Source: Arenicellales bacterium (GTDB lineage Bacteria; Pseudomonadota; Gammaproteobacteria; Arenicellales; JAJDZL01). Taken from it: a stretch of 64,000 nt of DNA. Positions 6,246 to 55,778 of the stretch are shown here, piece by piece. The stretch lies in contig OY762925.1 of assembly GCA_963666625.1 (NCBI GenBank), positions 2,373,792 to 2,437,791 of the forward strand. The letters run 5' to 3'. Position numbers and translations under genes: made by a program. The stretch's first letter is position 1; each line of letters starts with the position of its first letter. The notes beneath the pieces are model-generated. The model made no database searches. It saw nothing but the letters and a program-made list of their open reading frames with translations, and had not been told where the DNA came from.

Positions 6246-6267
6246 ATTTGCGGACGAGAGTTGTGCA

Positions 6268-8732: not shown

Positions 8733-8744
8733 ATCGAGGTCCCC

Positions 8745-9284: not shown

Positions 9285-9300
9285 AATCTCCACCTACATT

Positions 9301-9657: not shown

Positions 9658-9689
9658 AACCCCTCTATTCTTAAAGTTATCTAGAAGAA

Positions 9690-9755
9690 ATTATAATATT
9701 ATATTATTTATTTGCATTATATTGATATTGATAATAAAATTATTATAATATTATA
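9690..9755. promoter_or_regulatory. Putative operator/promoter: two identical 12-bp perfect palindromes TATAATATTATA (9692-9703, 9744-9755), centres 52 bp apart
   Basis: Directly read: the 14-nt direct repeat ATTATAATATTATA at 9690-9703 and 9742-9755 has a self-complementary core. Each core contains TATAAT on both strands. Lies 35-98 nt upstream of the mqsR-like start in an extremely AT-rich spacer. Confidence 0.5.
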
Positions 9756-10406
9756 CATTATCCATGGAGAGTCTTCAAAGAAATTTAGACAGTCCGATTT
9801 TGATTTTCACCTCATCGATCAAAGTGCTGTCCCTCAACGTTTTTTCGCGAACCCAAAGTTCTCAATCTTCTAAATTTTCTCGGAGATGGCACTAAGGCTT
9901 ACTACAACCTTCTCCTTTAAAAGAATGAGGAAATTGAAGTATTCTTCGGAGAATCCTTTCAATGGACGGGGTCGTCTGATCGAAAACTATCGAAAATTGC
10001 GTTGTTCAACAACAAATGCGATTCCGGAGATAGAACCAAATGGGTTCAGTCAACATCAATGGTTATTGAGACAATTGATAATATTTTCCGAAGCAGAGTA
10101 GAAAAACTAAACGATGGAGATTGGAAATTTGAAGATGAATCAACAGTTTGAACTTATACTAGTTGATTATGGACCAACATTAAAATTGAAACTGATAACG
10201 GTTGGACTTTGGTCATTCCGTCACCAATTCGTTTCATCAGATAAAGAACTCAAAGCCATGCAATTGCTAGTCAAGCGACTAGCAATTATTTGGGTATTCG
10301 GGGTAAGTTAGATATTCACCAGTGAACACTTGAGCAAAATGTAATGAATTTCCTCACAGTCTGTAGCAATGGCCCAACCTGCTTTCATTTTTGAGTCGAA
10401 TGTGAA

Positions 10407-11273
10407 ATGATATCCAGTATGACCGGATTCGCGAAGCGAATCGTCGAGACAGAGTGGGGGGTTGTTCAGTGGGAGGCACGCTCACTCAATCATCGCGGCT
10501 TGGATCTGTCATTCCGAATGCCGGAGAAATTTGCTTCATTGGAAGCGGACTGTCGAAGAATGCTCGCGACCAGGCTCAATCGCGGCAGAATTGAAATCAC
10601 ACTGAGATTCGATGACTCAGGCGCAATTTCTGATCTGCAGGAAGTGGACACCAACGCGTTGGACAACGTACTAAAGCATGTGGATTCGATCCAGGAACTG
10701 GCCCCTGACTCAATATCCATGTCGATCCGTGATCTTCTGAAATGGCCGGGAGTTCTCAAATCAACCGAGGTGGACAAATCTGAACTCGACGTAATCGTTC
10801 TGGACGCGTTTGACAATTTGTTGATGGAACTGGAAGATGATCGATTGCGGGAGGGTGGTGAGATTGAAACACTGCTATTTGAGAAGATCGGCGAATTGGA
10901 AATCTACGCGTATAAGTTGGATGAAATGATCGAAGCGGCTGAGGAAGCGGAGCGTGACCGATTGGCGAGAAGGTTGAAGGAGTTCGAATTCGACGTTGAC
11001 CCAGATCGGGTGGCTCAAGAAATTGCCATTGCTGTAATGAAAAGTGATGTTAGCGAAGAAATCGAGCGCTTTCGCTTGCATGCCCTTGAGTTGGAGCGCG
11101 TATTGAGTGAAGAAGATATTGCTGGCAAAAGATTGGGATTTTTACTCCAGGAACTTGGCAGGGAAGCCAATACGATCTCCTCGAAGTCAGCATATTATCC
11201 GCTCAGTACGATTATTATCGATATGAAAGTTGTGCTGGAGCAGATCCGCGAACAGATTCAGAATATTGCGTAG
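10407..11273 (+). CDS. yicC: YicC/YloC-family stress-induced protein (endoribonuclease family)
   Basis: 288 aa. Hallmark N-terminus MISSMTGFA and C-terminal ...GRLGFLLQELGREANTISSKS... motif. Conserved position upstream of gmk. Confidence 0.85.
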   Translation: MISSMTGFAKRIVETEWGVVQWEARSLNHRGLDLSFRMPEKFASLEADCRRMLATRLNRGRIEITLRFDDSGAISDLQEVDTNALDNVLKHVDSIQELAPDSISMSIRDLLKWPGVLKSTEVDKSELDVIVLDAFDNLLMELEDDRLREGGEIETLLFEKIGELEIYAYKLDEMIEAAEEAERDRLARRLKEFEFDVDPDRVAQEIAIAVMKSDVSEEIERFRLHALELERVLSEEDIAGKRLGFLLQELGREANTISSKSAYYPLSTIIIDMKVVLEQIREQIQNIA

Positions 11274-11278
11274 TTCGG

Positions 11279-11920
11279 ATGTCAGAAACTGAATCCGTTC
11301 TTTTGGTGATCTCCGCCGCATCGGGTGCCGGAAAATCCAGCCTTGCCCAAGCCCTGGTCCAAAATTCCGAACGGATTGTCCTGTCGGTGTCGCACACCAC
11401 ACGCGAAATCAGCGAGAATGAGGTTGATGGGCGTGAATATCACTTTGTGACTGAACAGGAGTTCAAGCGCATGATTAAGGCAGGTGAGTTCCTGGAGTAT
11501 GCAAAGGTATATGACAACTACTACGGTACATCTCGCGAAACAGTCATGCGGGAATTGAAATCAGGTAATAGTGTCATTCTGGAGATTGACTGGCAAGGTG
11601 CAAAGCAGGTGGAGACCAGGTTTCCGTCGGTGATCAAGGTTTTCGTACTGCCACCTTCCATTGAGGCACTTAAAGAACGTCTGATGGGTCGGGGACGTGA
11701 TTCCGACACTACCGTCGAAAGGCGCCTGGCGGCCGCGATGGACGACATGCAGCACTGCGTAGATTACGACTATCTGGTGCTGAACGATGACTTCGACGAG
11801 GCTCTCTCGAATATTCGGAATCTGTTGCCCGGAGGGTCCGGAATCGTACGTCCGATCCCGGCAAATCTGAAGGAGAAATTCAATATTGCTTTCGACGGCA
11901 CACAGCACGGTGTTGAATGA
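11279..11920 (+). CDS. gmk: Guanylate kinase
   Basis: 213 aa. P-loop ISAASGAGKSSL, SVSHTTR, and YHFV..EEF...G.FLEYA..YDNYYGT motifs of guanylate kinase. Confidence 0.95.
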   Translation: MSETESVLLVISAASGAGKSSLAQALVQNSERIVLSVSHTTREISENEVDGREYHFVTEQEFKRMIKAGEFLEYAKVYDNYYGTSRETVMRELKSGNSVILEIDWQGAKQVETRFPSVIKVFVLPPSIEALKERLMGRGRDSDTTVERRLAAAMDDMQHCVDYDYLVLNDDFDEALSNIRNLLPGGSGIVRPIPANLKEKFNIAFDGTQHGVE

Positions 11921-14739: not shown

Positions 14740-15134
14740 CTCGCTCCTGATAAGGGTTGCCGAATAAACTTGTTGTTTTGGGTTGCGATTCGACGTTATC
14801 AGCGATACTGTCCGGTTCCAGTTCGATCGTGCAAGTCCAAATTTGGCATGGCATCGTCGTGCCTGCAGTTCAATGATTTTATTTGTTGGTTGCCAGTCAT
14901 GCCTTTCGGGTATTCGGTCTCCTCTATTCCGGCGGTGAAGGCGAGTCCGGGCGTGGTTGCTTGAAAAGTTGTAAAACCGTCTCCGGCAAGGCTATTGGGA
15001 GAAGGCGAAACTCCAGTCTCCGAAGTTACTTTCCAATCAATGGCCAGCAATGTTGCTGAAGAGAACAATTACGCGCTGTATGGTGGGCAGGAACACCCGC
15101 GCAAGGGTATAGGAATACGGATATAATCGATTCC

Positions 15135-42237: not shown

Positions 42238-43623
42238 TCACCGCTCACGCCAACTGATTTCTCTCCCGATCATCCTGATTTTCTCCTTGATGATTTCTCT
42301 GGAATAGAAGTCGTTTACCCTTTTCTCGGCACTTTTCAAGGCACCCATTGCCGATTTCAAGTCTCCCAGACGAAAAAGGTGTTCGACTTTGGCGAGGTAA
42401 CCCGTCAGTAAGTCATCAGATTTCAATGCTGCTTCGGATTGCAATAGGTACAACTGCAGACTATCAGGATATCTTTGAATGTGCTTTCTGATGTAACGGT
42501 TCGCTTCTTGAAGATTATCCGTTCGGATCAAAGACCGCGTATACAGCTCGACGACAGCAATACCAGGTTCCGCTCCGAGTGCTGTTTCACTGAGCAGCGA
42601 CTTTGCGGTTTCAAATTCATGGGCATTCAGCTCGATTTCGGCTGCCGCTGTCAAAAACCATATATTGTCTGGCAGTCGGCTTCGGAAGGCATGAAGATGG
42701 TTGCGGGCAGATTCGACATCTCCATCCTTGGCCAGTGAGAGTACATAGCCGTATTGGGCAGCGGCTTGTTCAGTATCGCTGCCAGCCGTTAGTTTTTCCT
42801 TGAAAAATTTGTAGGTTTTATCCGGTTCCCAATGGAACAGAACCCGAACCCGAGCCCTGATGAAATGAAAATCTTCTGAAATTTGCGGCTTGGGAATATC
42901 TTTATATTGTTTGACTCTCGCCTCAAAATTTGCAATTCTTTCTGGAGTGATTGGGTGGGTGTTGTGGATATTACTTTGAATGCCGCCCTGTTCTCGAATT
43001 TCCTGCTCCAATGCAATCATGAAATCTCTTGCATCAAGCGGGCTGTATCCGGACGCGGTCAGAATTTGAAGACCCACGGCATCCGCCTCGCGTTCGTAAC
43101 TCAAGGTGTAGTCGATCATAGACTCTACTTGTGCTGCCTGCGCACCCGCAGCAACGGCAATCCCTTCCTCACCACCCGCTGCGATACCTGCCAGAATGAG
43201 CAAAACAGATGGCAAAAGGGTGGATTGGTAGTTTTCAGTCAATCTCGACAAGTGGTTCTGTTTGTGGTGCGCAAGTTCGTGTGCGATTACCGACGCCAAT
43301 TGTCCTTCGTTGCCGGCTGCCTCAATGATGCCGGTATTGATGAAAAAAGTGGCCCCCGGTCCAGCAAAAGCGTTGATCGACGGGTCGACGGCAACATGGT
43401 AGCTCAAAGGGTCGGAGTCCATGCTTGCGTTTTTTGCGAGTTTTTTCGCCAGATCAAACACATAGGTGTTGATCTGCGTGTCTTTGGATAGATCAACGGA
43501 CTCTCGGATCAGATGCAGAAAGTGCCTGCTCTCGCGTTCGAGTTGTTTGGACTTGAACAGATTCTTGGATTGCGCCTCTGTCTGTTCGACAGTACAAGGA
43601 GCGAACCAAAAAAAGACACCCAC
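42238..43623 (-). CDS. M48-family zinc metallopeptidase with TPR domain (BepA/YfgC-like)
   Basis: 461 aa. HELAHHKQNH (HExxH) and a C-terminal TPR-like region. The track start is a GTG, and the in-frame upstream codons encode the rest of a signal peptide (see findings), so the true start is uncertain. Confidence 0.8.
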   Translation of the reverse strand: MGVFFWFAPCTVEQTEAQSKNLFKSKQLERESRHFLHLIRESVDLSKDTQINTYVFDLAKKLAKNASMDSDPLSYHVAVDPSINAFAGPGATFFINTGIIEAAGNEGQLASVIAHELAHHKQNHLSRLTENYQSTLLPSVLLILAGIAAGGEEGIAVAAGAQAAQVESMIDYTLSYEREADAVGLQILTASGYSPLDARDFMIALEQEIREQGGIQSNIHNTHPITPERIANFEARVKQYKDIPKPQISEDFHFIRARVRVLFHWEPDKTYKFFKEKLTAGSDTEQAAAQYGYVLSLAKDGDVESARNHLHAFRSRLPDNIWFLTAAAEIELNAHEFETAKSLLSETALGAEPGIAVVELYTRSLIRTDNLQEANRYIRKHIQRYPDSLQLYLLQSEAALKSDDLLTGYLAKVEHLFRLGDLKSAMGALKSAEKRVNDFYSREIIKEKIRMIGREISWRER

Positions 43624-43857
43624 CAGGGAAAGCAGGATGGTCAGTTTAGTTGAATTGATCTTGATTGGAGAGTCTCCGGAATGAATTTGGGTATGCTGAT
43701 CGACGCAGGTCGCAAATTACTGAATTTGGCGGTATCAGCTAAATTTTATCAGTATCGAAATTTACAATTTTCTAATTCGGTACAATGAATCTGATCGGAT
43801 TGATCGTTACACCGCATTGGCGCAAGAAGTCTGTCTTAGTTATCCGCAATTGAAATT

Positions 43858-44250
43858 ATGAAGTTCAATATTCTTGTCAGCGAAGGGCCTTATACACATC
43901 AGGCATCCGATTCTGCGTATCAGTTTGCAAAAGCGGCGGTCAATGCAGGACACGAAGTGATACGCGTATTCTTCTACCATGATGGTGTCTACAACGCGAA
44001 TCGGTTGAGCGCACCCGCTGTCGATGACCGTGATGTTGTGAATCAATGGGTGCGTTTAGCTGACGAATACGAAATAGATCTTGCAGTATGCGTCACCGCG
44101 TCGCTTAAGCGTGGTATTTTGAGTGATCAGTCGGCACTGCGATACGGCAAGAATGTGGACAATATCGAAAAGAAATTTCAGGTTGCTGGAGTCGGTTACT
44201 TTATCGAAGGCAGCATCATTGCTGATCGCACGATCGTATTTGGTGACTGA
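43858..44250 (+). CDS. dsrE: DsrE/TusD-family sulfurtransferase subunit
   Basis: 130 aa. MKFNILVSEGPY...VFFYHDGVYNAN...LAVCVTASLKRG (active-site Cys) is collinear with DsrE/TusD. Confidence 0.85.
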   Translation: MKFNILVSEGPYTHQASDSAYQFAKAAVNAGHEVIRVFFYHDGVYNANRLSAPAVDDRDVVNQWVRLADEYEIDLAVCVTASLKRGILSDQSALRYGKNVDNIEKKFQVAGVGYFIEGSIIADRTIVFGD

Positions 44251-44268
44251 AAAGTCGGGTGATTGTTC

Positions 44269-44661
44269 ATGGATCCTTTAAAAAAACGCATCATGTACGT
44301 CAATCGCCGCGCGCCTTACGGTACTGCGTACGCGCTTGAGGCACTCGATGTCGTGTTGGCTGGTGCGGTGTTTGAGCAGGATGTCAGTGTTGTGTTTCTT
44401 GATGACGGCGTGTATCAACTAAAGCGCGGTCAGAATCCTTCAGTTTTGAATATGAAAGACTTTTCCAAGACCTTTGGTGCATTGCCAGATTTCGATGTCA
44501 TGCATCTTTATGTTGAAGAGGAGTCCCTGGTGCAGCGGGGCTTGACAGCCGAGGACCTGATTGATGTTCCTCGCGAAGATGAAATTGATGCAGTGACCTT
44601 GATTTTGTCAACCGACCTGTCCGATTTAATGGACCGGCAAGATGTAATCCTGCAGTTTTAG
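44269..44661 (+). CDS. dsrF: DsrF/TusC-family sulfurtransferase subunit
   Basis: ATG at 44269 (the track starts at a TTG at 44263). ...IMYVNRRAPYGTAYALEALDVVLAGAVFEQDVSVVFLDDGVYQL is typical DsrF/TusC. Confidence 0.8.
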   Translation: MDPLKKRIMYVNRRAPYGTAYALEALDVVLAGAVFEQDVSVVFLDDGVYQLKRGQNPSVLNMKDFSKTFGALPDFDVMHLYVEEESLVQRGLTAEDLIDVPREDEIDAVTLILSTDLSDLMDRQDVILQF

Positions 44662-44670
44662 CGACTTTCG

Positions 44671-44973
44671 ATGCTTCATACGATCAACAAATCACCATCG
44701 GAAAAATCGACTCTTATGAGTTGTCTCCGTCTCGCCACCGAAAACAGCGATATCATTCTGATTGAGGATGCGGTCTACGCAGCGATGACTGGCACTCATA
44801 CCGAGTTTTTGGTTCAAAGTGCATTGGCAAGGTACCGGATCTATGTGCTCGAACCGGATCTCGAATGTCGCGGACTGCAAAAGTCAAAGTTGATCAGTGG
44901 TATTCAGACTGTTGGTTACGATGGGTTCGTAGAACTGTCGGTGAAAAATAGCGCAGTACACTCCTGGCTCTGA
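44671..44973 (+). CDS. dsrH: DsrH/TusB-family sulfurtransferase subunit
   Basis: 100 aa. MLHTINKSP...C...ILIEDAVYAA is typical DsrH/TusB. Third gene of the E-F-H trio. Confidence 0.8.
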   Translation: MLHTINKSPSEKSTLMSCLRLATENSDIILIEDAVYAAMTGTHTEFLVQSALARYRIYVLEPDLECRGLQKSKLISGIQTVGYDGFVELSVKNSAVHSWL

Positions 44974-44986
44974 ACGGACTGTCAGC

Positions 44987-45319
44987 ATGACTTTAGAATT
45001 TAATGGCAGGATCTATCCGACAGACCCCGAAGGATTTTTACTCAGCCCCGAAGAGTGGTCTGAAGATCTGGCTCGAAAGATGGCAGAGGATGACGGATGT
45101 GAACTGGGCTCTGACCATTGGCAGGCGATCTACATATTGCGGGAATATTACTCGCAGTATGCAATCGCACCACCAATTCGTATATTGGTACGTCACATGG
45201 GAAAGAAACTGGGCAAGGAAAAAGCCAACAGCCCCTACCTTTATGAACTGTTTCCACATGGACCGGCGAAACAGGCGTGCCGCTATGCCGGATTGCCGAA
45301 ACCAACCGGTTGTATCTGA
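44987..45319 (+). CDS. dsrC: DsrC (two-cysteine type, TusE/DsrC family)
   Basis: 110 aa ending ...GPAKQACRYAGLPKPTGCI. The C-X10-C C-terminal arm is the DsrC hallmark. As I recall, E. coli TusE carries only the last Cys. Confidence 0.9.
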   Translation: MTLEFNGRIYPTDPEGFLLSPEEWSEDLARKMAEDDGCELGSDHWQAIYILREYYSQYAIAPPIRILVRHMGKKLGKEKANSPYLYELFPHGPAKQACRYAGLPKPTGCI

Positions 45320-45359
45320 TAATCTTTACAACAGACGAATCTGATGCCCTTGGCGGGGC

Positions 45360-46043
45360 ATGCAAGAAAAAATGAGTCTCTTTGTTGCCAGTGTCCTCTA
45401 TATTGCGGTGGCTGTTCTCACAATCGGTGTGATGTGGAAAGTCATCCAATACGCTCGTACCCCGGTACCGCACATGATCGCGGTGGCACCGGTTCCGAGA
45501 ACGAGATTGGGAGTATTGAACCGAATTGTACGGGAAACACTGTTTTTCGAAAGTCTGTTCCGGGCCAGCAAGTGGACCTGGTTCTTCGGCTGGATATTCC
45601 ACTACGCCCTGGTCGTTGTATTGTTGCGACATCTTTATTTTGTGACAGATCCGGTCCCAGCTTGGCTGGGAATGGTATTCGTTCCGTCGGACTACGCCGC
45701 GTGGCTTTTGGTTGCGAGCCTCGCTGGTTTGTTCGGAAGGCGGGTTGTGGTCAGTAGGGTTCGATACATATCCAGTCCATCAGATTATGCCATGCTGTTG
45801 CTGTTGCTGGTCATTGGTGCCAGCGGTCTGTTGCTTCGGTACGGAACGCATGTGAACATTGTTGCCGTTCGGGAATTCATGCTTGGATTGCTTGCACTGT
45901 CTCCTACAGATTTACCGGAAAACCTGACGCTCTATATTCATATCATCAGCGTGGTTGTGCTTGCTGTCGTCTTCCCATTCAGCAAACTCATTCATTTTCC
46001 TGGTTACTATTTCAGTCCAAGTCACAATCAACGCTACCGGTAA
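45360..46043 (+). CDS. dsrM: DsrM (NarI-like membrane dihaem cytochrome b subunit)
   Basis: 227 aa, ~5 TM helices with conserved His residues (FHYALVVVLLRH, IHFP). Positioned between dsrC and dsrK. Confidence 0.8.
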   Translation: MQEKMSLFVASVLYIAVAVLTIGVMWKVIQYARTPVPHMIAVAPVPRTRLGVLNRIVRETLFFESLFRASKWTWFFGWIFHYALVVVLLRHLYFVTDPVPAWLGMVFVPSDYAAWLLVASLAGLFGRRVVVSRVRYISSPSDYAMLLLLLVIGASGLLLRYGTHVNIVAVREFMLGLLALSPTDLPENLTLYIHIISVVVLAVVFPFSKLIHFPGYYFSPSHNQRYR

Positions 46044-46074
46044 ATGAGTAATTCAGCTGGTTCATTACCGAATC

Positions 46075-47514
46075 ATGAAAAAAATAGAATCACCCAAGAT
46101 CAAGGAAAGAGCCATGTCCCATGGCAAGCCATTTTTCGAATCAGGAAACGACCAAGGCAGCGAATTGGTTGAAGGTTGGAAAGATATTGCGATTGAGAAG
46201 CTCGGCGAAATGGCCGACTCGAACCGGGCCTTTCGCCTGTTTCTCGACAGTTGTGTCAAATGCGGTGCGTGTACAGACAAGTGCCATTATTTTCTCGGTA
46301 CCGGTGATCCGTTGAATATGCCGGTCGCGAGGCAGGATCTGATCCGAGGGGTTTATCGACGCTACCACACTTTACCCGGAAAATTGTTACCCCGTTTTGT
46401 GGGGGCGGTGGATTTGACTGAGGAGCTGATTGAGGACTGGAGTACCTATTATTATCAGTGTTCGGAGTGCCGTCGCTGCTCTGTTTTCTGTCCGTTTGGT
46501 ATTGATACGGCGGAAGTTACCATGGCTGGCCGATCAATACTCGAAGCAGTTGGTCTGAAGCAGAAATACATTCATACCATTATCAACAACGTCCACAAAA
46601 TCGGAAACAATCTGGGAATGGTCGGACCTGCGATCGCTGACACACTCGAGAGTTTGGAAGAGGAGTTGGAGGAAGACACCGGTGTCAACGTCAGATTTCC
46701 TCTGGATGAACCAAACGCTGAGGTTCTGCTGGTTGTGCCTTCCGCGGACCTGTATACCGAACCTCATGTTGACGGACTCATCGGCTGCGCAAAAATATTC
46801 CATCAGGCCGGAGTCAGGTGGACTATGGCGACCGACGCGTCAGAGGCCGCGAATTTTGGTTTATTTGTCGGCGATGACTCGCACATGCGCAATATCGCAG
46901 AGCGCATTTTGGCGACTGCTCTGAAACTAGGCGCAAGTCAGATCGTCATTGGAGAGTGTGGTCACGCATGGCGGGTCGCAAGCAGTTATTGGGGGAGTCT
47001 CTTCAAGGACGCAATGCCAGGCTACGAGCAGTTGCCTGATCCAATTCACGTATGTGAATACACACACGGTCTGATTACCGAGGGCAGGGTGCGCCTGGAC
47101 CGTTCAGTACATGACAACAAGGTCATTACCTTTCATGATTCGTGCAATGTGGCGCGAGGATCAAGGATGGGAGATCAGCCGCGCGATATCTATAGAATTC
47201 CGCGCGATCTATTGAAAGCCGCATGCACCAATTTCGTTGACATGGCTCCGGATACGATCTGCGAGAACACATTTTGTTGTGGTGGCGGCGGTGGGTTGCT
47301 GACCGATGAACTGATTGAGGTCCGGGTGAGTGGGGCATCTCCCCGAGTTCATGCGCTGGAACAGGTAATAGAGGAACACGGTGTCACTCACATGGCGGCA
47401 ATCTGCGCAATTTGTAAAAGTCAGTTCAGAGCGGTACTGCCTCACTATGGGCTGGGAACCGACATGATTGTCAGTGTTCACCAGATTCTGGGAGATGCAG
47501 TGGTTTTGAATTGA
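46075..47514 (+). CDS. dsrK: DsrK (HdrD-like Fe-S / CCG-domain subunit)
   Basis: 479 aa. Ferredoxin-type clusters CVKCGACTDKC and CSECRRCSVFCP, plus CCG-domain motifs (FHDSCN..., FCCGGGGG). Confidence 0.85.
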   Translation: MKKIESPKIKERAMSHGKPFFESGNDQGSELVEGWKDIAIEKLGEMADSNRAFRLFLDSCVKCGACTDKCHYFLGTGDPLNMPVARQDLIRGVYRRYHTLPGKLLPRFVGAVDLTEELIEDWSTYYYQCSECRRCSVFCPFGIDTAEVTMAGRSILEAVGLKQKYIHTIINNVHKIGNNLGMVGPAIADTLESLEEELEEDTGVNVRFPLDEPNAEVLLVVPSADLYTEPHVDGLIGCAKIFHQAGVRWTMATDASEAANFGLFVGDDSHMRNIAERILATALKLGASQIVIGECGHAWRVASSYWGSLFKDAMPGYEQLPDPIHVCEYTHGLITEGRVRLDRSVHDNKVITFHDSCNVARGSRMGDQPRDIYRIPRDLLKAACTNFVDMAPDTICENTFCCGGGGGLLTDELIEVRVSGASPRVHALEQVIEEHGVTHMAAICAICKSQFRAVLPHYGLGTDMIVSVHQILGDAVVLN

Positions 47515-47526
47515 ACCCTGAAACGA

Positions 47527-47895
47527 TCAGGTGTATTCCTTGCTGGAATGCCGTCTGGGATCAGTGCGCTTGACCACGCGGCCGAGAATATCCTTGTAAC
47601 CGATCACTACCGTGTCATTGCTTTCATTTGATGTAGTGGCGAACTGCAACACTCCATCAGAAATCTTCAGTTTCCCCAACTGAAGCTGGTCTGCAACCTG
47701 AGCAACCGCATAGTCGCCTTGCCGAACTGTCTGTTCCGGATCGATGACTATGATCGAACCGGCTTCAAATTCAGGTGCCATACTGTCGCCGACTACCCGG
47801 AGTACGAAGGGTTCTCTGGTTGTACACGCACTGCTCAATTGTCTATTATTAAAACCTCGGGTCGCTTCATACGTACAGTGTCGTAAGAGTTCCAT
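47527..47895 (-). CDS. S24 (LexA/UmuD-like) peptidase domain protein without a DNA-binding domain
   Basis: 122 aa. Ser nucleophile motif VVGDSMAPEF and Lys region GRVVKR. Only ~30 residues precede the catalytic domain, so there is no room for an HTH. Confidence 0.75.
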   Translation of the reverse strand: MELLRHCTYEATRGFNNRQLSSACTTREPFVLRVVGDSMAPEFEAGSIIVIDPEQTVRQGDYAVAQVADQLQLGKLKISDGVLQFATTSNESNDTVVIGYKDILGRVVKRTDPRRHSSKEYT

Positions 47896-48025
47896 ATATG
47901 CCTGTAGACTCTTTTGTACAGTCGGGCTATTTCAACGGAAAGACATGTTATCGCGCTCATACAATCGGAGCGGGAGGTGTTGACGGAGATTACCCGCAAG
48001 GAATCGTGCAAGGCACGGATGTTGG

Positions 48026-48856
48026 TCAATGCGCTTGCTGGTGTCCGCCCCCTTTATCTGTAACCAGTTGCAGATGTCGCGGCACCGCCCGTCGCACGAC
48101 ACCATTCGCTCCATGATCGCCGCAGGGACTGAACCCCATGGGCGGACGGGTCCACTCGAACACACCTTCGGACACATCAATCAGGTGAATGCCCGATTCC
48201 CACACAAGCTCACGCTGCTCCTTTTCGATCTCAACCACCGCAAGAATCGGATACACCTCCCTGGACTCGAACTTGGGCTTTTCAATGCGAAACATCCTGA
48301 CCAGTCGCCACACCTGATCCAGATGCTCGGGCTCAAACTTGCTCTTGACCTCCACCACATAGGCCGCACCGGAGCCGTTGCGGGCGACACCCCAGCCATC
48401 CAGCTGCAGACTTCTGCTCTCGTACGACTCCATGTAGTCGGCATCGAAATACTCGTCCAGTATCCGCCGGATGGAGGGTTCCGCAAGGGCTTCGGTGTGG
48501 CTTCCAAACTTGTTGTTGTGTCCGCCGATCTGCTTGCCGTGTTCCTCTGTTTTCACGGTCAGCTTCGCAATGTCTTTCCTGAGTTCTTTCCACTTCTTAT
48601 CGGACTTCTTACGCCTTTTGGCAGCACGCTTGTCGGACCGCTTTTGCCACTCTTCGAACTCCTTACGCATCTTTTCCGTTTCCGTACGCATTTCAGCGGC
48701 ACGCTGATTGATCCGCTCGGTCTCCTCACGTATCTTCTGAATCCTTTCCTCAGTCGTCATGTTTTCCGGTTCCGGCAATTTCGCCACCTCGAAATTCAGT
48801 TGATTTGCCCCTCGGCTATTTCCAGTCAAAAGCCTGATGACCGGCCCGGTCTCCAT
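48026..48856 (-). CDS. Coiled-coil protein with DUF3782-like segment and PD-(D/E)xK-like C-terminal domain
   Basis: 276 aa. Lys/Glu-rich coiled coil (EERIQKIREETERINQRAAEMRTETEKMRKEFEEWQK), then GGHNNKFGSHTEALAEPSIRRILDEYF and ...LDGWGV...AYVVEVKSK... (D...ExK). This layout resembles DUF3782-type proteins as I recall them. The segment is markedly GC-rich. Confidence 0.5.
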   Translation of the reverse strand: METGPVIRLLTGNSRGANQLNFEVAKLPEPENMTTEERIQKIREETERINQRAAEMRTETEKMRKEFEEWQKRSDKRAAKRRKKSDKKWKELRKDIAKLTVKTEEHGKQIGGHNNKFGSHTEALAEPSIRRILDEYFDADYMESYESRSLQLDGWGVARNGSGAAYVVEVKSKFEPEHLDQVWRLVRMFRIEKPKFESREVYPILAVVEIEKEQRELVWESGIHLIDVSEGVFEWTRPPMGFSPCGDHGANGVVRRAVPRHLQLVTDKGGGHQQAH

Positions 48857-49264
48857 GATACTACGATACGGCGAATTGATCCGGTAGGATTGACCACCAA
48901 CCGTCCGCCTGAACAGTGACCGGAATGCTCAATTCGATGTCCCTGTCGCCCGACAGGCAGAAGACTGCTTTGCGGACTCAGGACTGAAGCGATGAGGGAT
49001 GTCGGTCGGGATATCGCCGCCTGGCAGTCGGACCGGGATCGCCTGTCCGCAGCGACAGACCCGCGATTTACAACCGCTGGTGCGCGCTTCACGCTGTCGA
49101 ACCTTACGACACTAGTCGAATGACGATTCACTAGGAGCAAGAAAAATCTTTAGGATCAAGAGAATCAATTCCCAACAAAAAAGTTGAACTTCTAAATGGC
49201 ACTACGTCTTGCTATCAGAGCATTCGGACAAGAGAAGCGCAGTTCGATGTGAGAGTTGAGATTA

Positions 49265-50488
49265 TTACTCTGTCGCTCGATAGAGAATAGTTTTCAGGTA
49301 ATCGTCTGTCGATTCAAATACTGGTTTGCATCCGTTCTGTTTTTCCATAAGCGGAATTACTTTAGTCCGCACTCCCATACCTCTGGCATCGACATATTTA
49401 TAATCTTTCAATATATCGACAATGAGTACGTTTCGAGGGAATCTATAGCCAGCTATCATTTTCTCTACAGTCATTGAATTCTGCATGGCACCGGGACTGA
49501 TCACCTCAATACGATCGGAGTAGCAGGTTATTTCAATATCTATCGATCGTGTCCAGTCACGATGGGCGATTGCATTGACTAAGACTTCTCGAATCGCCTC
49601 AATAGGGTAGTACCACCGCTTTTCCCGCCTCATACTTTCATTTATGGTATCGCTCTCTTCCGAGATGAATGGTTTCAGCATTTTAATTGCACCCTCAATA
49701 ATGCCATCAGATGCAAATATTCGTTCATCACGAGTATCCATTTTCCATAGACCGACTAGTGGCATGTCCAGCTGTTCGTCTAATTTTGCTCGATAATCTT
49801 TGTCTTTTCCACCAAACACCATGAGTCGAATGCCTGCTTGCCTAAGGTATCTTCTCGGTCTATATCCGAACAGGAGTAAACCAGCGATAGTACACACCGG
49901 CTCATCACCAACTTCATCTGTGAGGAACCCTAAATTGAGAAGTCGAAGTGTCCAATCTTCAACAGAAGAAGGAACATCAGTATCTGCGATAACAAACTCC
50001 AAATAGTCCTCTATTCGTTGTAAATCCAAAGATTTGATAGACGTGCCAGACACTGGAAGCATTTCAGTATGAAGCATGCCACCCATTTGAAAGAGGCGGA
50101 CCTGCTGCTCTCGAGTTGCCAGTTTTGAAACACTGCCAACTCGTATGTAGATTTCCTCCCGGTCTCGGTGACGAAGCACATACGGCTTGGAAGTTCCTTG
50201 TGCAAAGGATAAAACTGCAACTCGACTATCGTCATTCACTTGTATTTCTTCATAAGATGGCAGAATGAGCGGGTGAATCTTTCGACCAACAACCGTATCC
50301 ATAACCCATTCTTGGAATCCCTTTCTTTTGATTCCTTGAATTTCGCCATCATCATCGACACCAAGGAGAATTTTTCCTCCCTGATGATTGACCATCGCGA
50401 CTATTTCTTTCGCCAACTGCTCTGGCCGTACATTGTCGCGTTTGAATTCCACTCTGGAACTCTCGTCATTGGCAATGATTTCGAGCAA
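49265..50488 (-). CDS. AlbA_2 (Schlafen-like divergent AAA) + HATPase_c_4-type domain protein (RecG-C-terminal-like putative regulator)
   Basis: 407 aa. N-terminus ESSRVEFKRDNVRPEQLAKEIVAMVNHQGGKILLGVDDDGEIQG is the AlbA_2 signature. C-terminus REVLVNAIAHRDWTRS..I.I..YSDRIEVISPG is HATPase_c_4-like. Confidence 0.75.
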   Translation of the reverse strand: MLEIIANDESSRVEFKRDNVRPEQLAKEIVAMVNHQGGKILLGVDDDGEIQGIKRKGFQEWVMDTVVGRKIHPLILPSYEEIQVNDDSRVAVLSFAQGTSKPYVLRHRDREEIYIRVGSVSKLATREQQVRLFQMGGMLHTEMLPVSGTSIKSLDLQRIEDYLEFVIADTDVPSSVEDWTLRLLNLGFLTDEVGDEPVCTIAGLLLFGYRPRRYLRQAGIRLMVFGGKDKDYRAKLDEQLDMPLVGLWKMDTRDERIFASDGIIEGAIKMLKPFISEESDTINESMRREKRWYYPIEAIREVLVNAIAHRDWTRSIDIEITCYSDRIEVISPGAMQNSMTVEKMIAGYRFPRNVLIVDILKDYKYVDARGMGVRTKVIPLMEKQNGCKPVFESTDDYLKTILYRATE

Positions 50489-50523
50489 TTCAGTCTTAAC
50501 CCGCTGAAGTTGAACGTCTGATT

Positions 50524-51672
50524 TTAATTGCGTTGCAAGTTCTCCAAACGCTCAATAAATCGCGGTTTATTTGCGTGTTTTCGCCGCATTTCATCCAGTC
50601 GTTCGAAAAAATATCCAGTCGTTCCGTGCTCATCGGCTAGTGTTTTCAAATCGAATAGCAATTGCGCCGCCGTATCGTAGCTTCTACCACTACGTATCGC
50701 GACCTCGTCATCTACCTCCTGCCATGCAAATTCACCTTTGCTCAGAACAGAATCCAGGCGTTTCCGACGCGCTTTTTCTTTCTCGATTCTTTGCTGCTCA
50801 CGCTCGACTGCCCGCTGATTCAGTTCAGCCATTTTTCGCTCTGCGCGAACTTCTTTCGTGCGGTCCCGTAAATCAGCTGCCGTTCGAAGCCGCCTGCTTG
50901 TCGATGTGGATTTTACCGATGCAAATTCACTGACGCGTCTGCGTAACTCCAAAGCAACATGAGGGTCTCCCTCGGCTAGACGGCAAAGCAACTTTGTTTT
51001 TTCAGCATTCGGTATGTCCTTGATCGCCGCTTGAGTAGTACCTTGCAAACTCTTGTCATCGAGATCGACGGCCGATTCTTCGGCGGCGGCTGTGACAAGG
51101 TCAGGATCGATTCGGAGAAAATCAGCGAGAGTCTTCAGCCCGGCATTTAACGGTCCAATGCCTGGCAGCGGTTCTTTAATTTCATTTCTGAGATCCCCTT
51201 GATCGACAGTCCAAAGCCAAGCAACGTATAAAGCCCGCAAATCCCCGGAAAGAATGTCTGACCTCAACGATGCCATACCACTGAGCCAGCCTGAACCTTC
51301 AACCCAGCCATCGTAATATTCGCTGTCTTCCGGACTGTCGTGAAAATCAAGAATCAAATTGTCACCTGCATCGACGACATCCAAAATTCCGAAGCCTCGC
51401 TGAAAGGGGGCAATCTGCGAACGATCAACCAGTCGTTTCGGTAGCCGGATCATCAGTCGCCGTGTTCCCCAGTTGGCCAGATACAGGTGCAAATCAAACC
51501 AGCGTTTCATGAATTCTTTCGGACTTCCTTTGAAGTCGCCAAAATGATACTCATTGACAAAGCTCGTACTGGTGATCTGCGCTCGACTTGACACTTTTCG
51601 AAGAGCCTTCATGTCTTGATCGCTAAGGGGTTTATCGATTGCTTGAAATTCGTAATATTGGTATTCGCTCAT
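50524..51672 (-). CDS. Hypothetical protein, conserved 'YYEFQAID' N-terminal domain + coiled coil (function unknown)
   Basis: Start taken at the ATG at 51672 (MSEYQYYEFQAIDKPLSDQDMKALRKVSSRAQITSTSFVNEYHFGDFKG...). A long charged coiled coil (RAERKMAELNQRAVEREQQRIEKEKARRKR) follows. Ends 35 nt upstream of the AlbA_2 gene on the same strand. Confidence 0.5.
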   Translation of the reverse strand: MSEYQYYEFQAIDKPLSDQDMKALRKVSSRAQITSTSFVNEYHFGDFKGSPKEFMKRWFDLHLYLANWGTRRLMIRLPKRLVDRSQIAPFQRGFGILDVVDAGDNLILDFHDSPEDSEYYDGWVEGSGWLSGMASLRSDILSGDLRALYVAWLWTVDQGDLRNEIKEPLPGIGPLNAGLKTLADFLRIDPDLVTAAAEESAVDLDDKSLQGTTQAAIKDIPNAEKTKLLCRLAEGDPHVALELRRRVSEFASVKSTSTSRRLRTAADLRDRTKEVRAERKMAELNQRAVEREQQRIEKEKARRKRLDSVLSKGEFAWQEVDDEVAIRSGRSYDTAAQLLFDLKTLADEHGTTGYFFERLDEMRRKHANKPRFIERLENLQRN

Positions 51673-52001
51673 GATTCGTTGATTCGACGAGTTTATTCGG
51701 AATTGGTGTCGGAGGTTCAGGTCACACCTGCTTTGCAACAGTCCGCATTTTAATGCCTTGTCTATGAGTAACCGTACGAATTTCAACAAAATTTCCAGCA
51801 GTCTTTGGTTCTGGCTCTGTTGGATCAGGTGTTGCTTTATCGGATTCAGTTACTTTCTGGAATCACTTATTTGCATACTCATTCTGTTCAGCAAGGGTTT
51901 TGAGAATTCGACATCATAATTTAATCCTCAGAAAAATAAAATACCTCACAATGAATTTGATATATCGTATTAACTTCAGGAATTAACCACTGGTAGATGA
52001 C

Positions 52002-53042
52002 GTGATTAGGAGCAATACAACTCATCGATCTGAGGCTGCAATTGCAGCCGTTCTCCCTCTTTCGGTTCAAATTGAGCGCGGCCGAGACCAAGGCTATGCT
52101 ATCGATCTCAAAATCAACGGACAGATGATCCGTGCCGAGTGGCTCGGTGAGGGCGGTTTGCGCCAAGCACGCGAGTTGATTGCGAAACCCACACAACATC
52201 CTGATGTCGCGGTGGCTCGCCGAATGTCGCCCGGCGCACGGGAAGCACTTTCAGTTGCAGGAGTTGGCTGGGTGGACGAAACCGGCGCGGCGGAGATAGT
52301 TCTTGAATCCTTGATCGTTTCCAAGAGCGGGCACCAAATCAAGAAACCGCAAAGACTGCCTCACTGGACACCCGCCGTGCTCGCAGTTGCAGAAGCCTTG
52401 CTCTGCGACGGACGGCCAACCGTCAGTGCTATGCAGGAGGTTACGAAGCTTTCCGCTGGAAGTGTCACAAATGCGTTGCGTACCCTCATGGATCTAGGTC
52501 TAATAAGTGCAGTAGCATATCGTGGACGTAACTCGGCACGCCGAATTGACGATAAAGACAGACTGTTGGACGCTTATGCGACCGCCGCCGCTGCAATGAT
52601 GCCAGAGCCCGCTCTTACTGTTGGCGTGACGTGGCGTGAACCAACAGAAATTTTAGCTGAAGTCGGCCAGCGGTGGGACAACGCAGGCATCACGTGGGCA
52701 GCCACCGGAATAGCGGCAGCATCTGTACTCGCTCCTTATCTCACAACAGTCAATTCCGGCGATGTTTATGTTGGCAGGAGGACAGTTGCCGAGCTTGAGG
52801 CGATTGCCGCGATCGCCGAGCTTAAACCGATCAACGACGGTCGCTTAACCTTGCGTCCGTTTCCCACTGTCACAGCACGGTTACTTTCCGTGGTGAAGAA
52901 TGGCCTGAGTTTCGCTCCATGGCCTCGTGTGTACGCCGACCTGCGTATTTCCGGCGTGCGAGGTGAAGAGGCAGCCGAACATCTTCGGGAAGTGATCAAT
53001 GATCTACCTTCCCGCTCCCGTACCGCGCGAGTGGCAGTGTAA
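52002..53042 (+). CDS. wHTH protein, possibly an AbiEi-type (type IV TA antitoxin-like) regulator
   Basis: 346 aa (GTG start in the track, true start uncertain). Central wHTH-like TVSAMQEVTKLSAGSVTNALRTLMDLGLI, followed by a ~180-aa C-terminal domain. GC-rich relative to its neighbours. The family call is tentative. Confidence 0.35.
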   Translation: MIRSNTTHRSEAAIAAVLPLSVQIERGRDQGYAIDLKINGQMIRAEWLGEGGLRQARELIAKPTQHPDVAVARRMSPGAREALSVAGVGWVDETGAAEIVLESLIVSKSGHQIKKPQRLPHWTPAVLAVAEALLCDGRPTVSAMQEVTKLSAGSVTNALRTLMDLGLISAVAYRGRNSARRIDDKDRLLDAYATAAAAMMPEPALTVGVTWREPTEILAEVGQRWDNAGITWAATGIAAASVLAPYLTTVNSGDVYVGRRTVAELEAIAAIAELKPINDGRLTLRPFPTVTARLLSVVKNGLSFAPWPRVYADLRISGVRGEEAAEHLREVINDLPSRSRTARVAV

Positions 53043-53299
53043 ACAGCACTTGAGACCTACTGGCCAATTTCACGGATGACTGAGCTTAGGGGAAATCGAG
53101 CCTATGTCATCCAGATGTAGGTCGATCACCCCGAACTCGATTCCGTGACACTTACCGAAGACGCTATAGTCGCAGTTCGAGAATTTGATCGGCAACTGCA
53201 GTCCCCGGCAAACTGATTTGGTAATGAAATTAGAATCTGTCTCTGTCTGTGGTAAACCGGATATTGATCCCCGCACTGGTTCAGGTCCAACGGTTCAGT

Positions 53300-54355
53300 T
53301 CAATGTAGCATCGCCGAGTATTGAGGAACAGGATCAATCCTGAGCCAGTCATAACGGTCCCCCGTTTCCACGGTAATCTCCTTAACCGTGCCACCGCGTA
53401 CGACGGAAATCCGCACATCAACTCCCGCCGGACCGGTCTCCCAGACGCGTCGAAAGAAACTGGCCATATCCGAAACCGGTTGACCGTTAACGGCAACTAT
53501 GATGTCATTGGGTCTGATACCCGCCACTTCAGCTGGACTGTCCACCGCAACTCGAAATACGAAAAGGTGTCCGCGGTCCACGGCGGTATAGACACCCAAC
53601 CACGGCCTGGTTTCGCCGGAAGCCCGTCCATTTTGCAACAGATCGTCGAGTATGGGTTTCAGCAAATTGATAGGCACAAACATGTTGCCGGGAACAGGTC
53701 GAGATCCCTCGACAGTTTTCGCATCATTTACGATCAATGATCCCACGCCGACAAGCCTGCCATTGGAACCGATCAGGGCAGCACCGCCGAACCCGCCGAA
53801 TGGCGGAGTCGTAAAAATTGCTTGATCCAACAGATATTCCCAGTAACCTGAAAATTCCCGTACGTCGACGACTTGTACGACCTGCATGTAGTCCGGTCCA
53901 ATATGTGAAATAATCAATGCGGTATCACCGGGAGACAGAAAAGCGGAATCACCAAGCGGGATACCCCTGATACCCAGCGAACGAGTCGATCTCACCAAAC
54001 CGAAGCCACTGTCGTAATCGTATGCAACAACTTCTGCAGGGACATAATTGCCTTGACTGTCTGTAACCTGAACATCTGAAGCCTCCAAAATGAGGTATCC
54101 AATCGTCAGCACCAGTCCGTCATCGCCAATGACGATTCCGCTGCCCTCGCGCTCGTTTCCCAGACTGTTTGCAGTTCTTGCGGTATCCGGCACCATCGCG
54201 CGAAGTCCGATCACTGCTTTAATCGTTGCCTCAACCAGTTCATCTGAATCCTGAGAAGCGACTGTCGGTGTCATCAGAAGCAGGGTGACAAAAATGCAGG
54301 CAAACAATCTTCGAATATATTGATCAGCTGTTGAAGATCGATAGGTATACATCAC
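53300..54355 (-). CDS. Trypsin-like serine peptidase with C-terminal PDZ domain (S1C family)
   Basis: 351 aa. Signal peptide, a GSGIVIGDDGLVLT (His region nearby) ... GFGGAAL Ser-region analogue, and a PDZ-like segment GIRPNDIIVAVNGQPV. Confidence 0.8.
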   Translation of the reverse strand: MMYTYRSSTADQYIRRLFACIFVTLLLMTPTVASQDSDELVEATIKAVIGLRAMVPDTARTANSLGNEREGSGIVIGDDGLVLTIGYLILEASDVQVTDSQGNYVPAEVVAYDYDSGFGLVRSTRSLGIRGIPLGDSAFLSPGDTALIISHIGPDYMQVVQVVDVREFSGYWEYLLDQAIFTTPPFGGFGGAALIGSNGRLVGVGSLIVNDAKTVEGSRPVPGNMFVPINLLKPILDDLLQNGRASGETRPWLGVYTAVDRGHLFVFRVAVDSPAEVAGIRPNDIIVAVNGQPVSDMASFFRRVWETGPAGVDVRISVVRGGTVKEITVETGDRYDWLRIDPVPQYSAMLH

Positions 54356-54609
54356 AACCTGCTTACCGAATAGATGCGCACCAAACTGCTGCGCTAGATA
54401 TTGTTATCACTTATATCAGGATTGTAAACACAAATACGTAACATGTGCAGGAAATTGATTTGAGGCTGGTTCGGAATCGTGAGAATTTCAAGCTCCACTT
54501 TCTTTGTATGGACTAGAGCAGCCTCAATTTTCTCGTTTGATTCAGTACTTGACCGAGACCGCCTGCGATAGTGTGAACCACACTCCCAATTGATCGGAAT
54601 ATATTCGAA

Positions 54610-55386
54610 TTACGAGGGTATAACGGCTCGCACGAAGAGAATTACGGAAAGAGCCATGAGTACGAACAGCGCAACTTTCTTGAAAGTCTCCTGATTGGTA
54701 TTAATGAAACCCTGATTGCCGACCCAGACACCGAAGATCAGTATTGGCAGGAATACTGCTGTACGCCAGTAGACGCTCGCGTCGATCAGACCCTGAGCCG
54801 CGAACATAGCCGTTCCGACACTATCGGTGCCGATAAAGTAGGTGATGATCGAGGCGCGTCCTGCAACCATACCGATTGGCGAGGAGAAGTAAAACAGGAT
54901 AACAGGTGGACCCACAATTCCCATGCTTCCGTTCAGAACGCCGGCCATCAGCCCAACGCCAAATGTTGCCAATGACCCGGGTTCTTTCGCGAGTGCGAAA
55001 CCGCGGAGTATCAGGACCGCAGCAATGAAAACGATGATACTGAGTGCTATGAGCACCGGTGTCGCGGGTAGAGTGGAGAGGGCATGAATTCCAAATGGCG
55101 TCCCTGCCCAGCTGCCGAACAACAGCAGTCCGATGGATCGCCAACGTACGTTCTTCCAGACCTGTGGCAGGAGCGTGAAGCTGGTCACCACCTCGAACAT
55201 CAGAACCATCGGAACAACCTGCAGGGGAGGAAGCACGAGCGAGAGACTGGTCACCCACAGCATTGACGCACCAAAGCCAGTGTAACCTTTGAGGTAAGCG
55301 CCTGCGAACACAGCGATTAGACTGAACAGGAAACTCGCAGCAGAAAGTCCTGTCAGGTTCAGAATTCCACTTGGCATCTCACCCAT
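54610..55386 (-). CDS. TauE/SafE-family (DUF81) anion/sulfite exporter
   Basis: 258 aa, ~7-8 TM helices with internal duplication and GxGG-type motifs (KGYTGFGAS..., LNGSMGIVGPP). Confidence 0.8.
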   Translation of the reverse strand: MGEMPSGILNLTGLSAASFLFSLIAVFAGAYLKGYTGFGASMLWVTSLSLVLPPLQVVPMVLMFEVVTSFTLLPQVWKNVRWRSIGLLLFGSWAGTPFGIHALSTLPATPVLIALSIIVFIAAVLILRGFALAKEPGSLATFGVGLMAGVLNGSMGIVGPPVILFYFSSPIGMVAGRASIITYFIGTDSVGTAMFAAQGLIDASVYWRTAVFLPILIFGVWVGNQGFINTNQETFKKVALFVLMALSVILFVRAVIPS

Positions 55387-55778
55387 GATCCCTTTGCTTA
55401 CTCTTGAGAATGGCCACTGCCGAAAAGTGCGCGATCAATTGTACAACTTCGAGCAAATTTGTAATATCAACGCGAAGCTAATCTGAATCCTTTCGAGTGC
55501 CGGTATGCAAACTACTCGGTATTCCAACAAAAACTTCCCGCTTCCGACGAAATACATGAATCTGGTATTGCCAGAACCGATACTCTGGCGGTCACTCCGA
55601 TAGAAAAGTCGGTATTCAGCTGTTTCACACTAATCGGTCAATTACAGAATTGAATTTGAAACTCCGTTACCATTGTCAAAGTTTCACAATTGCCGATAAA
55701 ATAGACGAATATTGCAGTTGGGACAGCTTCAGGTTGAAACGTGCGAATTTTATTACGTATGTCTGATGTCATGACGGT

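Follow-up and report, generated by a model that had tools for sequence, protein, structure and literature searches.

Background

DsrC and the membrane complex DsrMK are normally studied as servants of the sulfite reductase DsrAB. Here we analyse a cassette of six genes, dsrE-dsrF-dsrH-dsrC-dsrM-dsrK, from an Arenicellales bacterium (contig OY762925.1) whose genome holds no dsrAB. The stretch of DNA that was analysed, referred to below as the window, is 64,000 nt long, and coordinates are positions within it unless they carry the prefix C1. The cassette is maintained under purifying selection, in a bacterium that is predicted to oxidise sulfur by other means.

The closest described system is the operon dsrABEFHCMKLJOPNRS of the rDsr pathway (reverse dissimilatory sulfite reductase) in Allochromatium vinosum and A. 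palmeri. It contains the same six genes in the same order, encoding proteins 44-58% identical to those of the cassette, and DsrE-Cys78, the DsrH cysteine, the two arm cysteines of DsrC (CysA and CysB), the predicted haem-ligating histidines of DsrM and the cluster cysteines of DsrK are all kept. Unlike Allochromatium, the window's genome is without dsrAB, dsrP, dsrN, dsrR and dsrS, its DsrMK is not accompanied by DsrJOP, and its host is predicted to oxidise sulfane sulfur via the heterodisulfide reductase-like (sHdr) system. The TusBCD-TusE sulfur relay of Escherichia coli is also similar: the proteins are homologous, the genes run D-C-B and then E, an equivalent of TusD-Cys78 is present, and the set is the sole one in its genome and is accompanied by an MnmA that shares 52% identity with the E. 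coli protein and by two TusA homologues. In relatives from four other families of the order (f4, f5, f12 and f14) a one-cysteine tusE occupies the matching place, inside tus(A)DCBE in f4, f5 and f12. E. coli TusE, however, has Thr at the CysB position and ends in VKC, whereas the DsrC of the window keeps CysB and ends in PTGC; and the cassette continues into dsrMK, whereas E. coli tusE is unlinked to tusBCD.

DsrMK is known as a partner of DsrC, with DsrK acting on the two-cysteine arm and DsrM connecting to the quinones (PMC10861901, PMC10504309). In archaeal and Gram-positive sulfite and sulfate reducers a two-subunit DsrMK, without DsrJOP, uses menaquinol to reduce the DsrC trisulfide (PMC10504309, PMC10861901). 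The cassette resembles these minimal complexes in encoding M and K beside dsrC. In the reducers, however, DsrMK depends on DsrAB and DsrK belongs to a basal reductive-type clade, whereas the window's DsrK is of the proteobacterial oxidative type; and in contrast to the hosts of menaquinol-driven DsrMK, the window's host has UbiA and gave no match to MenD.

DsrAB-less genomes with related genes have been mentioned before. Stockdreher et al. 2012 (PMC3397948) noted in one sentence the two-cysteine DsrC/TusE proteins of DsrAB-less Methylococcaceae, Marinobacter and Lawsonia, and Halomonas titanicae SOB56 carries DsrEFH and DsrMKJOP-like genes without DsrAB (PMC9237845). Compared by description only, these cases share with the window the lack of DsrAB, a two-cysteine DsrC and Dsr-type accessory genes; they are passing remarks, with no analysis of distribution, selection or context, and describe no link to sHdr. 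One large Dsr survey was restricted to genomes with DsrABCMK (PMC10504309), and another treated as false positives the DsrEFH matches from genomes lacking DsrAB (PMC8477390). The type I sHdr-LbpA system with DsrE3C and TusA of Hyphomicrobium denitrificans has the same canonical gene order as the sHdr cluster of the window's genome, and DsrEFH, DsrC and DsrMK are not among the sHdr components listed (PMC11094781). The sHdr-LbpA system also uses TusA and DsrE-family sulfur transferases, encoded at a locus separate from the cassette. A search of the literature turned up neither an account of sHdr organisms that conserve a dsrEFHCMK remnant nor one of the series of reduced forms described below.

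A dsr cassette in a genome without dsrAB

An earlier sequence-only reading of the window had described six co-directional genes between a divergent M48 peptidase gene and a convergent S24 peptidase gene. Its coordinates, gene names and the 12-nt gap after dsrK agree with the annotation given here:

43858-44250, plus strand: dsrE (TusD-type), 130 aa, active-site Cys78; PF02635, TIGR03012 at 147 bits (cut-off 89)
44263-44661, plus strand: dsrF (TusC-type), 132 aa; TIGR03010 at 117 bits (cut-off 94)
44671-44973, plus strand: dsrH (TusB-type), 100 aa, with the equivalent of DsrH-Cys20; PF04077 at 92 bits, TIGR03011 at 95 bits (cut-off 49)
44987-45319, plus strand: dsrC, 110 aa, with a two-cysteine C-terminal arm; PF04358 at 138 bits
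45360-46043, plus strand: dsrM, 227 aa, predicted NarI-type membrane dihaem cytochrome b; PF02665 (Nitrate_red_gam), NF038037
46075-47514, plus strand: dsrK, 479 aa, catalytic Fe-S subunit; NF045796 at 513 bits (curated cut-off 400)
43624-43857, no strand: presumed promoter region, by position only; 234-nt divergent gap between the M48 peptidase gene and dsrE
42238-43623, minus strand: M48 peptidase with TPR repeats, divergent upstream neighbour
47527-47895, minus strand: S24 peptidase, convergent downstream neighbour, 12 nt past the dsrK stop

The six open reading frames (ORFs), which span 43858-47514, are separated from dsrE to dsrK by spacers of 12, 9, 13, 40 and 31 nt, and these short distances suggest that the cassette is a single operon. 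A scan for the sigma-70 consensus in the region upstream of dsrE gave no match.

The absence of dsrAB from the window, remarked on in the sequence-only reading, is confirmed and extends to the whole genome, a single contig of 3.82 Mb that is 98.5% complete. The best match in it to the dsrA model TIGR02064 scores 16.8 bits and lies in a 561-aa open frame that is taken to be an assimilatory sulfite reductase. The proteins of the full A. palmeri dsr operon, read from locus L031, were used as tblastn queries. DsrA, DsrB, DsrP, DsrN and DsrS found no match in the genome; neither did DsrJ, a weak negative given that this query comes from an uncertain reading frame; and DsrL and DsrO found generic matches only (DsrL 28%, GltD-like; DsrO 30-36%, ferredoxin-type). 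With these limits for DsrJ, DsrL and DsrO, dsrLJOPN is missing along with dsrAB, and the cassette stands alone as had been proposed. The A. palmeri DsrE, F, H, C, M and K queries match the cassette and nothing else in the genome; tblastn with the window proteins and profile hidden Markov models applied to the ORFs of all six frames likewise revealed no duplicate of these genes. The gene dsrC is the genome's sole DsrC/TusE-family gene and EFHC its sole TusBCDE-type set; the second tusBCDE set for which the sequence-only reading had suggested a search was not found by either method.

Ancestry of the cassette genes

Similarity, gene order and trees assign the cassette genes to the Dsr type and, with DsrM below its NCBIfam cut-off, M and K to genuine DsrMK. 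DsrE is 55% identical to Allochromatium DsrE as against 41% to E. coli TusD, and DsrC 56% identical to Allochromatium DsrC as against 49% to E. coli TusE. Identities to the Allochromatium counterparts are 48% for DsrF, 47% for DsrH, 44% for DsrM and 58% for DsrK; with the DsrK proteins of gammaproteobacterial sulfur oxidisers the last also shares 57-64% identity. DsrK has two CX2CX2CX3C motifs ([4Fe-4S]) and a CCG domain. The TusD and TusC equivalog cut-offs are reached, that of TusB (NF010035) is missed, and DsrC scores 118 bits with the TusE equivalog NF008562, under its cut-off of 191. E. coli TusB found no match in the genome as a tblastn query.

The gene order of the cassette is that of a segment of known dsr operons. 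Among 80 loci with a DsrK alignment, 77 hold all or part of dsrABEFHCMKLJOPN (many are cut by contig ends), and the cassette corresponds to their EFHCMK segment. The other three are EFHCMK only, with DsrK 72-76% identical to that of the window; two are labelled Arenicellales chromosomes from metagenome-assembled genomes (MAGs) and one is an unclassified gammaproteobacterial MAG. Two further relatives, with DsrK 80% and 71% identical, carry the same cassette behind the same upstream neighbours as the window (a pterin/tetrahydromethanopterin gene set, a flavoprotein gene and the M48 gene), and downstream they have PhyH-PanB-DUF488-MsrA.

The trees are quick IQ-TREE runs in which the reduced lineages have long branches, and exact placements are tentative. 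In the DsrK tree the window's family is monophyletic (Shimodaira-Hasegawa-like approximate likelihood ratio test, 99) on a long stem. When E. coli TusDCBE roots the concatenated tree of EFHC, the one-cysteine Tus clusters of the order diverge first, all two-cysteine clusters fall into one group (support 85), and the window's family is nested within that group (support 100). The sequence-only reading had asked for such a phylogeny; the position of E, F, H and C among two-cysteine Dsr proteins, away from Tus, argues for a Dsr-type rather than a Tus-type ancestry.

Distribution in the family and the order

We sampled 151 genomes of the order, 27 from the window's family (three genera) and 124 from other families:

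Window's family: dsrA in 0 of 27 genomes, DsrK in 21 of 27, sHdrB1 in 27 of 27 (85-100% identical)
Other families of the order: dsrA in 73 of 124 genomes, DsrK in 76 of 124, sHdrB1 in 0 of 124

Across the three genera of the family the cassette persists together with its upstream synteny, at DsrK identities down to about 66%. The six congeners without DsrK all retain E-F-H-C with an unchanged DsrC arm. EFHC lies at the same site as in the window, with the M48 gene alongside at four loci and PhyH-PanB downstream at four. Collinearity between the window and its closest MK-less congener (L093, with about 80% identity at the nucleotide level) extends up to 45362, a breakpoint in the dsrC-dsrM spacer, and to account for the EFHC tree dsrMK must have been lost independently at least three times. 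The sequence-only reading had treated the six genes as one stand-alone DsrC-cycling module. That they stand alone is borne out, but since the MK-less congeners keep EFHC, the cassette consists of two sub-modules of unequal dispensability and is not an indivisible unit.

A search for DsrC/TusE in 37 genomes of the order found at least one match in 36, the exception (G018) being an 88%-complete draft. Exactly one match was found in 33 of the 37, and two to six in four genomes with full dsr operons (G001, G005, G013 and G114). Where the flanks were read, the gene lies in an E-F-H-C (tusD-C-B-E) cluster, barring four loci: L086 (G501) has C-M-K without E, F and H, L085 is without H, and L113 and L114 show no EFH within a 3.3-kb locus. 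Families f4, f5, f12 and f14 have a one-cysteine TusE; in these proteins and E. coli TusE, CysB is replaced by T, S or F. A tusDCB cluster was seen beside tusE in f4, f5 and f12, and tusA precedes the cluster in f4. At four f4 loci (L104, L105, L108 and L109) the cluster is a five-gene tusADCBE whose one-cysteine TusE ends in PKPAHCI. In the dsr-bearing families the DsrC/TusE gene is the copy in the dsr operon; G037 and G049 have this single copy and no separate tusE. Three genomes (G008, G021 and G019) have a two-cysteine EFHC and no other dsr genes.

Conserved residues and selection

The C-terminus of DsrC is AKQACRYAGLPKPTGCI, with CysB and CysA both in place (CX10C), whereas that of E. coli TusE (NC_000913) is AKQATKIAGLPKPVKCI, with Thr at the CysB position. 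The sequence-only reading had expected E. coli TusE to have just the terminal cysteine, and the E. coli genome bears this out. Catalytic residues are conserved throughout the cassette: DsrE Cys78 in 100% of 82 homologues, the DsrH cysteine in 95% of 84, CysA and CysB of DsrC in 90 of 90 Dsr-type homologues, the four predicted haem-ligand histidines of DsrM in 100% of 88, and all 14 cluster cysteines of DsrK across 89. The MK-less congeners were examined for conversion to a one-cysteine TusE and none was found. Their DsrC arm is identical to that of the window, which rules out the idea that CysB is lost once MK is lost.

Synonymous sites are saturated between family members, with the synonymous difference (pS) at 0.72 or above except in the closest pair. 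Over the same comparisons non-synonymous divergence (dN) ranges from 0.06 to 0.41 for the six genes, and is 0.14-0.21 for dsrK and 0.19-0.36 for dsrM. The genes E, F, H and C of the closest pair have dN/dS values of 0.05-0.07. The cassette evolves faster than sHdrB1 of the same genomes. Because dN is low at saturated synonymous sites and the catalytic residues are conserved, the cassette is maintained under purifying selection and is not decaying.

Sulfur metabolism of the genome

The sequence-only reading had seen a methylotroph- or heterotroph-looking context around the cassette and had suggested a genome-wide check for, among others, sox, apr, sHdr and tusA. All four were found, and that description of the context does not hold. 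The cluster soxXAYZB lies at C1:241594-247821, with SoxB at 798 bits (above cut-off); the two genes directly after soxB, inspected by eye, are thioredoxin-like and TolC-like and not soxCD. A complete sHdr cluster at C1:255941-263247, about 2.16 Mb from the cassette, has the canonical, type-I-like order dsrE3-shdrC1-B1-A-H-C2-B2-hypothetical-lbpA-tusA, and its domain content agrees with that of such clusters. The genes aprA (979 bits) and aprB, together with a gene for an AprM-like multi-span membrane protein, are found at C1:2625784-2628965, and a TauE sulfite-exporter gene lies in the window at 54610-55386. This gene content marks the host as a predicted sulfur oxidiser in which sHdr, rather than rDsr, takes sulfane sulfur to sulfite. 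The best match to E. coli IscS in the genome is just 32% identical, so the cysteine desulfurase that would feed TusA is not an IscS orthologue.

A role of DsrMK as the membrane anchor of AprBA was also considered, and is ruled out by the AprM-like gene, which precedes aprB. The apr locus is flanked on one side by a paralogue of the window gene at 48026-48856, which encodes a coiled coil and a PD-(D/E)xK-like domain; a transposase-like ORF lies beyond aprA.

Independent reductions in other lineages

Outside the window's family, EFHCMK without dsrAB occurs in G030, G111 and G125, and two other genomes have shorter DsrAB-less cassettes: EF-C-MK, without H, in G214, and C-M-K only in G501. The first three and G214 branch beside or within full-dsr relatives, with lengthened branches, and G501 is on a very long, poorly placed branch of the DsrK tree. 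Besides the window's family, at least five lineages have undergone this reduction independently. DsrK without dsrA was rare in a sample of 400 genomes of the class: among those of good quality just three had it, namely the window's genome, G214 and G501. Neither G111 nor G125 has sHdrB1. No neighbour gene is common to the independent DsrAB-less cassettes; their flanking genes encode, among others, a glycosyltransferase-3 family protein, a Xer-type integrase, a gamma-glutamyltranspeptidase, a prolyl oligopeptidase, a homocysteine S-methyltransferase and QueG.

At L086 (G501, 6395-12499) the end of the gamma-glutamyltranspeptidase gene is 8 nt from dsrC, and the dsrK stop overlaps with the prolyl-oligopeptidase gene; with 455 bits and a branch length of 2, this DsrK is very divergent. 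At L085 (G214, 7358-10746) dsrE-dsrF-dsrC-dsrM-dsrK is followed by the Xer-type integrase gene, and its DsrK and the one from the Olavius algarvensis Gamma 3 symbiont are sisters.

One dsr operon in decay was also found. At L090 (G047) dsrA is lost, dsrB is reduced to residues 232-356, directly before dsrE, and dsrN to residues 33-83 (remnants at 6195-6569 and 14786-14938), while EFHCMKLOP look intact. The position of the locus, inside a 211-kb contig, excludes an artefact of a contig end. The dsrA of G071 is broken into four pieces, perhaps by real frameshifts, perhaps by errors of long-read assembly.

Function of the cassette

The cassette is the trimmed core of an oxidative-type dsr operon, ancestrally dsrABEFHCMKLJOPN, which has been shortened by dsrAB on one side and by dsrLJOPN on the other. 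Sulfur oxidation in the host would proceed by the truncated Sox system, the sHdr-LbpA complex and AprBA-AprM, without DsrAB. We lean, by a modest degree, towards a model with two layers, a housekeeping EFHC relay and an accessory DsrMK module that cycles DsrC. In the first layer DsrEFH and DsrC would be the cell's only persulfide relay of the TusBCD/TusE type, passing sulfur from a cysteine desulfurase to TusA, then to DsrE-Cys78 and on to DsrC, at its penultimate Cys; the sulfur would next most probably go to MnmA, for 2-thiouridine in tRNA, and perhaps to other acceptors. From the gene complement, service as the Tus relay for tRNA 2-thiouridine is the most likely second duty of EFHC, and it would explain why EFHC constantly survives, in all family members sampled and in nearly all genomes of the order that were checked. 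In the second layer the CCG-domain cluster of DsrK would act on the CysA/CysB arm of DsrC, in disulfide, persulfide or trisulfide form, and the two haems b of DsrM would exchange electrons with the quinone pool. Within the family DsrMK, most likely an accessory module, is useful but dispensable: its long retention in most members indicates that it does something useful, and its clean loss at least three times that it is not essential. Because UbiA is present and MenD absent, electrons probably flow from the DsrC thiol or persulfide to ubiquinone, provided that ubiquinone is the sole quinone.

Several observations weigh against the two-layer model. DsrM scores 137 bits with NF038037, under the cut-off of 300. 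A DsrMK running to ubiquinone would oxidise DsrC, a poor fit with pure maintenance. We know of no demonstration that a two-cysteine DsrC serves in tRNA thiolation, and in E. coli TusE the place of CysB is taken by Thr. Genomes that have none of DsrK, DsrAB and sHdr still show an invariant CysB, so that redox cycling by DsrK cannot be the sole reason for the retention of this residue. G501 keeps C-M-K with no adjacent EFH, and of the five DsrAB-less keepers of MK outside the family, four (G111, G125, G214 and G501) are without SoxB; these lineages suggest that C-MK has a function in its own right, one left unexplained by the Tus idea.

The strongest alternative to the two-layer model, which we regard as a tentative possibility, is that the cassette is an autonomous respiratory or homeostatic module. 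TusA and DsrEFH would load DsrC, and DsrMK would oxidise or reduce it with the quinone pool, turning the DsrC persulfide into a trisulfide or disulfide (or reducing it) in a two-electron step that requires no sulfite reductase; DsrC might shuttle reducing equivalents between sHdr and the membrane, and tRNA thiolation would be a side job or none. How the sHdr complex delivers electrons to the respiratory chain is unsettled, and in the window's family DsrC may be a thiol/disulfide (or trisulfide) carrier from cytoplasmic sulfur handling, possibly by sHdr, to the ubiquinone pool. The more specific proposal that DsrC and DsrMK form a self-sufficient, quinone-coupled protein-persulfide/dithiol oxidoreductase, with a job of its own that lets it survive the loss of DsrAB, we consider doubtful. 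Electron flow to ubiquinone fits an autonomous oxidising role better than one of keeping DsrC reduced, and with ubiquinone apparently the only quinone found, thiol-to-quinone flow is feasible. An autonomous role would also agree with purifying selection on DsrMK through saturating synonymous divergence, with the independent retention of C-MK in at least five other DsrAB-less lineages (in G501 as C-M-K alone, and in four of them without SoxB), with the invariance of the two-cysteine arm in all Dsr-type clusters, and with the joint presence of sHdr and two-cysteine DsrC in 12 of the 12 family genomes checked for both. The six sHdr-bearing congeners that cleanly dropped dsrMK and kept EFHC speak against it, in that MK is not needed there for sHdr or for the task of EFHC. 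Nor is there an evident enzyme to resolve a DsrC trisulfide without DsrAB; a coupling to sHdr cannot be general, since G111 and G125 keep EFHCMK without sHdrB1; and the independent cassettes share no conserved neighbour.

It is very unlikely that the six genes are a non-functional rDsr remnant on its way to deletion. Every DsrAB-less lineage has longer, that is faster, branches, MK has been lost repeatedly within the genus, and intermediate states of decay are seen in G047 and G071. Against decay stand six intact reading frames, the conservation of all catalytic cysteines and histidines, a dN of merely 0.14-0.36 for M and K where synonymous sites are saturated, and the persistence of cassette and upstream synteny across three genera down to about 66% DsrK identity.

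Still less credible is an ordinary TusBCDE set beside an unrelated Hdr-like enzyme, an outcome that the sequence-only reading had named as fatal to its own interpretation. The TusD and TusC equivalog models are reached, and the set is the only one of its kind in a genome with MnmA and TusA. Yet each subunit is nearer to Dsr (44-58% to Allochromatium, against 41-49% to E. coli TusD, TusC and TusE), the TusE and TusB cut-offs are missed, the DsrC arm has two cysteines, and the proteins lie within the Dsr-type clade, apart from the one-cysteine Tus clusters of the order. An unrelated Hdr-like enzyme is further contradicted by K, a bona fide DsrK (513 bits against 400; 58-64% identical to DsrK of sulfur oxidisers), and by the four predicted haem histidines of DsrM.

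That the cassette serves a normal rDsrAB, with dsrLJOPN, placed elsewhere in the genome, a split cluster that the sequence-only reading had entertained, can be set aside: spread-out dsr genes do occur in other organisms (L010, L018) and nothing else speaks for it, whereas in this nearly complete one-contig genome TIGR02064 and tblastn (DsrA, B, P, N and S, and J with its weak query) recovered no dsrAB, which refutes the explanation, and dsrA was found in 0 of 27 family genomes.

Implications

In the window's family and at least five other lineages DsrAB has been discarded, and DsrC, DsrEFH and often DsrMK have been retained under purifying selection. These organisms amount to DsrAB knock-outs made by nature, and they allow a direct test of which substrate DsrMK uses in sulfur oxidisers and in which direction it works. 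They also make visible a series from the dsr operon to a tusBCDE-like state, running from the full operon through EFHCMK and a two-cysteine EFHC to the one-cysteine tusDCBE of other families, which bears on the kinship of the Tus and Dsr relays. Within one order they offer a clean example of the replacement of rDsr by sHdr in cytoplasmic sulfur oxidation. For annotation they carry a warning: matches to dsrEFH, dsrC and dsrMK do not signal a Dsr pathway.

Surroundings of the cassette

Compared with L093, two stretches are present in the window alone. The first (45363-53290) holds dsrM, dsrK, the S24 gene, a DUF3782-like gene, an AlbA_2 pair and a 346-aa ORF; the second (54298-55668) holds the TauE gene. 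In two relatives that carry dsrMK (L082 and L084), PhyH follows dsrK by about 0.1-0.9 kb, which indicates that the 47.5-55.7 kb region of the window is largely an insertion.

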